Under the pieces are notes generated by a model. The model was not told the DNA's origin. It saw only the letters and a list, made by a program, of their open reading frames with translations, and searched no databases. From sequence record PQ657772.1: a DNA stretch of 64,000 nucleotides; one strand, given 5' to 3'. Below are positions 16,983-17,459 of the stretch, in pieces (within the stretch, counting starts at the first letter, position 1; every line of letters begins with the position of its first letter). This stretch comes from Escherichia phage EC.P1. The translations under genes and the position numbers were made by a program.

Positions 16983-17459
16983 TTATTTTAGAATGTATAA
17001 GTGTTTTTCTGCATTAACCAGTCTGTGGTCAATGATTTCTTTGATAACGTTCCAGTTACCACCGCCTAAATCGGCTCCAATTTTCGGGAAGTGTACATGA
17101 ACAGTGCGTTCAACGTTACATAAGTAATTGAGTTGTTTGAAAACATCATCGATTGCATCATAACTTACATACTTAGAACCGTCATTACCATAGTACTTTT
17201 GGGTAATGCAGTTTGCGATAAGCAAATCATCACTTATAGAAGAATATGAAATTTGTCCTGTTCTTAGAAATCCCATTTCCTTTTCATATGCTTTATAATC
17301 ATCATATGCCATCGGATAACGATTTCTTAGTTCTTTTGCAAAACCCGAACCCATCTTACCCTGTGCATTACAACCATGAGCGATTATATGCAACGCGGTT
17401 TGATCATCAGTAACAGTGTTGAATAATTCAAACAAATTACCTAGGTGTTCATGTATCAT
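16983..17459 (-). CDS. macro domain protein (ADP-ribose binding/processing)
   Basis: 158 aa; Gly-rich loop HGCNAQGKMGSGFAKEL and C-terminal HFPKIGADLGGGNW resemble macro domain motifs. Confidence 0.55.
   Translation of the reverse strand: MIHEHLGNLFELFNTVTDDQTALHIIAHGCNAQGKMGSGFAKELRNRYPMAYDDYKAYEKEMGFLRTGQISYSSISDDLLIANCITQKYYGNDGSKYVSYDAIDDVFKQLNYLCNVERTVHVHFPKIGADLGGGNWNVIKEIIDHRLVNAEKHLYILK

Follow-up and report, generated by a model that had tools for sequence, protein, structure and literature searches.

A stand-alone macrodomain of the ALC1/TARG1/DarG class in an Escherichia jumbo phage, with Gln in place of the catalytic Lys: a candidate eraser of DarT2 marks

The DarTG2 system is native to Escherichia coli, for example to the enteropathogenic E. 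coli (EPEC) strain E2348/69 (PMC12255303), and strongly restricts phage T5, while T2 and T4 are resistant (PMC11825919). A role of phage macrodomains against its toxin, DarT2, has already been published for T4 and PhiKZ (2025-2026). The PhiKZ protein gp104 (AdfM) strips DarT2 marks both in vitro, from DNA, and in vivo, relieves the toxicity of DarT2 and is required on DarTG2-bearing hosts (PMC13309987). In T4, tk.4 was the single DarTG2-conditional hit of a transposon screen, its clean knockout was sensitized to DarTG2, and the T-even protein Tk.4 was likewise named AdfM in the HIDEN-SEQ preprint (bioRxiv 10.1101/2025.11.20.689424). A bacterial relative, SCO6735 of Streptomyces coelicolor, efficiently cleaves DNA ADP-ribose that is linked to thymidine, but not to guanosine, and can rescue E. 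coli from DarT; its Gln85 stands in for the catalytic Lys of TARG1 (K84) and DarG (K80), and thymidine-ADP-ribose (ADPr) hydrolase activity is lost in the Q85A and N27S variants (PMC9411070). In the following, we describe a macrodomain gene in a 64,000-nucleotide stretch of Escherichia phage EC.P1 (PQ657772.1), referred to as the window, and compare its product with these proteins.

The source phage is an Escherichia jumbo myovirus of the Asteriusvirus/Rak2-like group. Over positions 15000-20000, the window is 99.8% identical to WPEC3, 99.7% to fEgEco12 and ~85.6% to 121Q and PBECO4. The gene in question is:

16983..17459, minus strand: macrodomain gene (158 amino acids, ATG start), ALC1/TARG1/DarG class with a Gln-type active site

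The fold of its product was settled with PDB, PHROG and structure searches rather than with Pfam alone. The protein matches PHROG 335 (E = 4.5e-46), and among PDB sequences phmmer finds BT1257 (1e-15), SCO6735 (3e-11), Poa1p (2e-6) and Taq DarG (8e-4). An AlphaFold2 model computed from a 57-sequence alignment (mean predicted local distance difference test (pLDDT) 93.8, predicted template modeling score (pTM) 0.90) has a three-layer α/β/α fold with a central mixed sheet, in agreement with solved macrodomains; its nearest structural neighbors are TARG1, DarG, Poa1p and SCO6735, not the MacroD, PARG or viral X-domain types. The product is unambiguously a macrodomain of the ALC1/TARG1/DarG/Poa1p class. 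This bears out the original prediction, made from the sequence alone, of a macro domain at this site, and the fold prediction that it had set beforehand as its refuting test returned a macrodomain. In the Pfam search that it had proposed, PF01661 (Macro) matches residues 28-141, but with 20.2 bits, just below the gathering score of 22. A precomputed PF01661 match is present in many homologs at 40-70% identity, and the sub-threshold score is an issue of model sensitivity, not evidence against membership in the Macro family. Homologs align along the full length of the protein, and deposited orthologs are labeled ‘macro domain-containing protein’, ‘Appr-1-p processing domain protein’ or ‘phosphatase’.

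The active site can be assigned to a subclass. Two Gly-rich loops that bind the ADP-ribose diphosphate, GKMGSGFA (residues 34-41) and PKIGADLGGGNW (125-136), align with the loops of DarG, SCO6735 and gp104. Thirteen positions are invariant in the 57-sequence family alignment (H28, N31, G39, Y55, N83, Q87, G91, Y100, P125, G128, L131, G133 and I142); Asn31 lies within an HGCN motif, Gln87 within an ITQ motif, and the PxIGAxxGxGNW signature is also present. The counterparts of Asn31 are N22 in DarG, N23 in AdfM and N27 in SCO6735, and in a MAFFT alignment with T2 Tk.4, gp104, BT1257, SCO6735 and the Taq and Mtb DarG proteins this residue is conserved throughout. Position 87 divides the same set: the phage protein, Tk.4, BT1257 and SCO6735 have Gln there, the DarGs and gp104 have Lys. 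Profile-profile comparison to gp104 with hhalign (98% probability) places N31 on gp104 N23 and Q87 on gp104 K78, and HMMER, hhalign and MAFFT agree that Gln87 occupies the Q85 site of SCO6735, which is the position of DarG K80 and TARG1 K84. Judged by these alignments, the protein is a stand-alone (‘orphan’) macrodomain of the ALC1/TARG1/DarG class, within the subclass that has Gln for the catalytic Lys, as in SCO6735, BT1257 and Tk.4.

A separate observation concerns Asp130 (codon 17070-17072) in the second Gly-rich loop. It is Asp (GADLGGG) in most Rak2-like jumbo-phage homologs, including the Asteriusvirus clade, and Gly (GAGxGGG) in more distant aligned homologs, Tk.4, DarG and SCO6735. 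Asp130 presumably does not occupy the position of TARG1 Asp125.

Homologs of the protein were found by tblastn in 1,977 of 50,697 phage records, among them T-even phages (tk.4), Felix-O1-like, Pakpunavirus, Rheinheimera, Acinetobacter and other phages. To T2 Tk.4, it is related at 29% identity (BLASTP, E = 5e-12), and the family profile scores Tk.4 at 1.3e-24 and PhiKZ gp104 at 5.8e-15. Like the Asteriusvirus protein, Tk.4 is a stand-alone macrodomain (~155 residues) of phages that infect the same host species. The two share the motifs IAHGCN, TQ and PRIGAGIGKGNW (pattern P[KR]IGAGxGxGNW), the Gln at the DarG-K80 position, a Gly at the position of SCO6735 Val25, and an acidic character. They differ in the loop after the TQ motif, which is shorter in Tk.4, in the gene context of Tk.4 (tk - tk.4 - vs - regB), and in that a genetic phenotype is known for Tk.4, whereas the Asteriusvirus protein is known from sequence. 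As a stand-alone phage macrodomain homologous to T4/T2 Tk.4 and with equal active-site residues, it falls into the Tk.4-type group of AdfM proteins.

SCO6735 and BT1257 of Bacteroides (PDB 5E3B, 2FG1, 2AFC) belong to the same Gln-type ALC1-like subclass, but are bacterial chromosomal proteins with Val/Ile25, a basic isoelectric point (pI ~9) and, according to the sequence alignment, mobile loops that are one to two residues longer than in the phage protein. The authors of the SCO6735 study describe its mobile loop as ~5 residues longer than that of DarG/TARG1 and note its basic residues and electropositive surface (PMC9411070). PhiKZ gp104 and the DarG2 macrodomains share the fold class and the conserved Asn, and gp104 is itself an orphan phage copy used against DarTG2; unlike the phage protein described here, however, they carry a catalytic Lys (FPTK motif) at the Gln position. 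DarG is the only PADLOC defense model that matches the macro protein (39.4 bits, compared to 36.0 for Tk.4 and 132.9 for gp104), and in the NCBIfam DarG model NF048014 only the macro part is matched (positions 20-139 of 338; 33 bits versus a cutoff of 250). In addition, DarG2 has a C-terminal domain for DarT binding and a darT gene beside it, neither of which is found at the macro locus: there is no DarT next to the gene, whose neighbors are small phage open reading frames (ORFs), a Nudix protein and a CCA enzyme. The Gln in place of Lys80, the length of 158 residues, and the lack of a C-terminal domain and a darT neighbor place the protein outside the DarG2 antitoxins of type II toxin-antitoxin systems.

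On balance, we lean towards the reading that the macro protein acts as an orphan hydrolase of the DarG kind and undoes the modification of phage DNA by host DarT2, a function that has been assigned to the AdfM proteins T4 Tk.4 and PhiKZ gp104. DarT2 of the E. coli host ADP-ribosylates thymidines in single-stranded phage DNA and thereby blocks replication. In this scenario, the ADP-ribose moiety would be bound by the two Gly-rich loops of the macrodomain; with Gln87 locked by Asn31 and the distal ribose positioned by Gln87, the base-ribose bond would then be hydrolyzed to yield free ADP-ribose and a replicable DNA template. Hydrolase activity, thymidine-ADPr as the substrate and an anti-DarTG2 phenotype are thereby what we infer for this protein from its sequence. 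The phage distribution fits in with this reading: T5 lacks any macro homolog according to the family profile, which does find Tk.4, gp104 and the macro protein of a T5-like contig, and we count the restriction of T5, as opposed to the resistance of T2 and T4, as a natural experiment.

Several points weigh against such a function. The protein has Gly29 where SCO6735 has the Val/Ile25 that has been called subclass-specific; the backbone of this residue is proposed to position the catalytic water, and the authors of that study hold it to be specific to SCO6735 (PMC9411070). The loop after TQ is ungapped relative to DarG and two residues shorter than in BT1257, as read from the sequence alignment, and the protein is acidic (pI 6.0), whereas SCO6735 and BT1257 are basic. 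Furthermore, the identity to Tk.4 is only 29%, and the evidence on Tk.4 is itself genetic and stems from a preprint, its biochemistry being unpublished (bioRxiv 10.1101/2025.11.20.689424). A literature search for tests of Asteriusvirus phages against DarTG found none; the only paper, that of Sharanji, leaves the macro gene undiscussed. Enzymes that act on DNA cannot be told apart by net charge, though, because gp104, a proven DNA hydrolase, is likewise acidic. The loop carries K88 and K96, and the pLDDT falls to 73 at residues 91-100, a dip in the model that is consistent with a flexible loop.

The next best explanation, which we regard as unlikely, is that the protein removes ADP-ribose from proteins (Glu/Asp-linked) or RNA (uracil- or phosphate-linked), erasing marks set by other ADP-ribosyltransferase (ART) toxins or defenses of the host or by phage ARTs. 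TARG1-class enzymes are indeed multi-substrate enzymes: SCO6735 and TARG1 hydrolyze Glu/Asp-ADP-ribosylated proteins, and enzymes of this class also reverse the ADP-ribosylation of uracil on RNA (PMC13036486). SCO6735, however, favors DNA over protein in competition and is inactive on 2'-OH RNA ADP-ribose. On the host side, E. coli has an mRNA-targeting ART defense (CmdTAC), while the scanned ORFs of the window include no ART gene, and the known in vivo phenotypes of the phage homologs T4 Tk.4 and PhiKZ gp104 are solely anti-DarTG2. Finally, the conserved neighbors of the macro gene are RNA and translation genes. They form a block in Rak2-like phages in which the position of the macro gene is conserved down to ~45% protein identity, including Xanthomonas phage XaC1:

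Block order in Rak2-like phages: 2H-SAK, lysozyme, S30AE, CCA-adding enzyme, Nudix, glutaredoxin, YqeY, two small ORFs, Macro, two small ORFs, PTH2, neck gp13, deoxynucleoside monophosphate (dNMP) kinase, sheath
23493..23903: 2H-SAK-like ORF (sub-threshold match)
18799..19914: CCA-adding enzyme
18279..18692: adjacent Nudix protein
17477..17500, minus strand: terminator-like hairpin with a 10-bp stem (5 G-C pairs), a 4-nt loop and a T-rich tail, a pattern match from a consensus scan and the sequence
17466..17469, minus strand: Shine-Dalgarno-like GGAG, 6 nt 5' of the macro gene ATG (17459), read directly from the sequence

Most of this block is retained in the window (16265-23903), including the S30AE ribosome hibernation factor and glutaredoxin, while the YqeY gene of the relatives is absent. 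At the PTH2 position of the relatives lies ORF 16265..16642, which has no Pfam match itself; the records of close relatives have an aminoacyl- or peptidyl-tRNA hydrolase annotated here. The Nudix protein was considered as an ADP-ribose pyrophosphatase that would form a pair with the macro protein, but its PDB matches cover only the generic Nudix box (MutT, Ap4A, RppH and Dcp2 types) and allow no call. Directly upstream of the macro gene, the hairpin sits in the 51-bp gap between the stop codon of the preceding ORF (17511) and the ribosome-binding site; as a sequence pattern, it may set the macro gene apart from the transcription unit before it and suggests a transcript boundary or an attenuation point just ahead of the gene. 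Two small plus-strand ORFs that overlap the macro gene were dismissed as mechanical artefacts of ORF listing.

The original prediction had placed the gene in a different setting, linking it to a Sir2/Nudt16-like Nudix pair in a distributed ADP-ribose toolkit together with a WGR-domain protein. All three partner genes that it named are present in the window (PF02146, PF22327 and PF05406). The Sir2 and Nudix genes are part of a larger module:

54892..55644, minus strand: Sir2 (PF02146, 1e-19)
54344..54895, minus strand: Nudt16-like Nudix (PF22327, 1e-18; human NUDT16 at ~1e-11 in the PDB)
54014..54334, minus strand: cREC_REC ‘cyclic-phosphate processing receiver’, directly after Sir2/Nudix and unmentioned in the original prediction (PF20274, 2e-23)
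53715..54017, minus strand: 100-residue ORF; its orthologs in WPEC3 and 121Q carry a membrane-protein annotation
52214..53653, minus strand: PIN-PhoH protein

The order Sir2-Nudix-cREC-PIN/PhoH is configuration (1) of the sirtuin-centered neighborhood of predicted NAD+-dependent RNA repair in jumbo phages (Iyer et al. 2022, PMC9503650). The Sir2 block is kept in 121Q (gp476-480), and none of the defense-type Sir2 models in PADLOC matches the phage Sir2.

In its concrete form, this theme would make the macro protein a clean-up enzyme of NAD+-dependent RNA repair akin to yeast Poa1p. Sir2 would act like KptA/Tpt1 and take 2'-phosphates off cleaved tRNA, yielding ADP-ribose 1''-2'' cyclic phosphate; the 2H protein or cREC would open the cyclic phosphate to ADPr-1''-phosphate; and the macrodomain would dephosphorylate this product, or deacetylate O-acetyl-ADPr, to ADPr, which would then be split by Nudix. 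The tRNA and translation flavor of the conserved block leaves room for such an RNA-directed role, as does the similarity to Poa1p, but the synteny of the block is confined to one vertically inherited lineage and is weak evidence of coupling. Poa1p, a eukaryotic enzyme that acts on a by-product of tRNA splicing (ADP-ribose-1''-phosphate phosphatase; PDB 6LFQ), has a Ser (FTSSFGG) at the invariant Gln87 position in a pairwise HMMER alignment; His28 of the phage protein aligns with Poa1p His23, and Poa1p Ser30 falls on the variable Lys35. The historical ‘phosphatase’ label of PHROG 335 probably derives from Poa1p and does not count as evidence of phosphatase activity. For the ribose-phosphate step, the window moreover holds an alternative candidate:

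43468..43794, minus strand: DUF4326 protein (108 residues; PF14216, 3.7e-24), wedged between nrdG (43020..43490) and nrdD (43803..45635)

The rhodanese-phosphatase clade to which DUF4326 belongs has been proposed to process terminal ribose phosphates of ADPr derivatives (Iyer et al.). The two genes that enclose it, nrdG and nrdD, are the anaerobic ribonucleotide reductase pair.

Genomic distribution argues further against a tie between macro protein and sirtuin. The sirtuin clade of the RNA-repair neighborhood has been explicitly described as uncoupled from a Macro gene (Iyer et al. 2022, PMC9503650), and in the window the Sir2 module is a self-contained neighborhood 38 kb from the macro gene. 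Across phage records, Sir2 was found in 986, compared to the 1,977 with a macro homolog, and the genus make-up differs. Phages of the T5-like, rV5-like and jumbo groups make up most of the Sir2 records; T5 itself carries Sir2 but lacks a macro homolog. Genus counts give at least ~415 records with macro and without Sir2 (Pseudomonas, Rheinheimera, Acinetobacter and Aeromonas phages); conversely, Sir2 occurs without macro in at least 169 records of Salmonella phages. In evenly spaced samples of 60 matches each, no Sir2 record is named T-even or T4-type, whereas the macro sample includes T2, RB18, RB43 and other T4-type phages. The macro and Sir2 distributions are therefore largely independent, and in none of the five independent lineages examined (T-even, T5-like, Pakpunavirus, phi92-like and Rak2-like) does macro lie beside Sir2. 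A sirtuin-coupled macrodomain would be adjacent or fused to the sirtuin and co-distributed with it, and this gene is not. Finally, a Macro domain is present in ~56% of jumbo phages and some NAD+-ADPr component in 85%, so that the joint presence of macro and Sir2 in a genome of ~350-380 kb is expected by default. Overall, we consider the Poa1p-like role quite improbable. The specific link from the macro gene to the Sir2/Nudix pair is not supported, given the self-contained module, the differing phyletic patterns, the absence of adjacency, the patchy occurrence of the WGR gene (see below) and the high base rate.

We hold it to be even more doubtful that the macrodomain, rather than being primarily a DNA de-ADP-ribosylase, serves as eraser or clean-up enzyme in a dispersed phage pathway of NAD+-dependent RNA protection. 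Its substrates would then be ADP-ribosylated RNA (uracil- or phosphate-linked) or the ADPr-1''-phosphate made by Sir2, 2H and cREC, and together with the neighboring CCA-adding enzyme, Nudix, YqeY and PTH2-like genes it would keep tRNA functional. Last, a non-catalytic ADP-ribose binder or sponge that sequesters ADPr-derived immune signals or shields ADP-ribosylated targets is very improbable: some macrodomains are readers only, the XaC1 homolog is annotated ‘ADP-ribose binding protein’ and the catalytic Lys of DarG/TARG1 is missing, but the Asn-Gln pair that is essential for SCO6735 catalysis is invariant in 57 homologs, and T4 Tk.4, with the same residues, has a defense-specific phenotype.

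Returning to the anti-DarT2 hydrolase as the favored reading, the gene itself is already known, as identical or near-identical proteins in GenBank and RefSeq are annotated as macrodomains, and macro genes rank with the most common accessory genes of phages. The present analysis adds that the Asteriusvirus protein belongs to the Gln-type (SCO6735/BT1257/Tk.4) subclass and has no specific tie to the Sir2 module. If the reading holds true, the protein would be another orphan antitoxin-like phage eraser against DarTG2, and the range of Tk.4-type (Gln-type) AdfM proteins would grow from T-even to non-nucleus-forming, Rak2-like jumbo phages. It would also aid host-range prediction on DarTG2-bearing E. 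coli such as EPEC, which would be a useful, if incremental, contribution to phage-therapy annotation.

The contexts in which macro genes occur in other phages are diverse:

T-even phages: tk - tk.4 - vs - regB
T5-like metagenomic contig (4186-7500): cpYpsA - HD_4 - macro - Gad2, near T5 A2
Pakpunavirus Pseudomonas phage vB_PaeM_B55 (969-4480): ribose-phosphate-pyrophosphokinase (Prs)-like and nicotinamide-phosphoribosyltransferase (Nampt)-like genes, a 65-residue ORF, macro
phi92-like Escherichia phage PHB05 (8701-9417): macro as the C-terminal part of a 238-residue fused protein, near nrdDG

On the T5-like contig, cpYpsA is a SLOG-type domain of the ADPr network, HD_4 a hydrolase and Gad2 an anti-Gabija protein; the region is apparently an anti-defense island, although T5 itself has no macro gene. 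The Prs-like/Nampt-like pair of vB_PaeM_B55 presumably resembles the NARP1 module of NAD+ reconstitution, and this context is a hint that NAD+ salvage may, in some lineages, draw on free ADPr from the macrodomain. In the PHB05 protein, the macrodomain is preceded by an N-terminal extension of ~100 residues.

As for the toolkit as a whole, the window encodes Sir2, the Nudt16-like Nudix, cREC, the 2H-SAK-like ORF, DUF4326, WGR and a second Nudix as domains of the NAD+/ADP-ribose network. The general part of the idea, a genome rich in such genes, thus stands, but it restates the NAD+-ADPr network computed for jumbo phages by Iyer et al. (2021-2022), while its specific macro-Sir2/Nudix tie is unsupported. 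The WGR gene and a possible RNA-repair gene lie at:

49069..50040, minus strand: WGR-containing ORF of 323 residues (PF05406, 1.3e-10), with WGR as the C-terminal 67 residues
33591..34829, minus strand: RlaP-family ‘RNA repair pathway’ Pol-beta nucleotidyltransferase of 412 residues (PF10127, 4.5e-17; PHROG 388)

The WGR domain was located by bulk Pfam scans; a scan for the literal WGR tripeptide had given only a chance match in a tail-tube ORF, and a looser regular expression nothing. Pfam, PHROG and the PDB gave no match for the N-terminal 255 residues of the protein. As an accessory gene, it is patchily distributed: 17 phage records have it (16 Escherichia, one Erwinia), and it is missing at that site in 121Q and WPEC3. 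The RlaP-family gene is possibly another RNA-repair component; the four ORFs that flank it (133-188 residues) have no Pfam match.

Between the macro gene and PhoH, the window is ~2.5 kb longer than WPEC3, the WGR gene included. Where the window has a single Sir2 (55-58 kb), the WPEC3 record (294-298 kb) shows several extra or fragmented Sir2-annotated genes together with Nudix, PhoH and portal fragments. The Sir2/PhoH region is a hotspot of variation among these close relatives.
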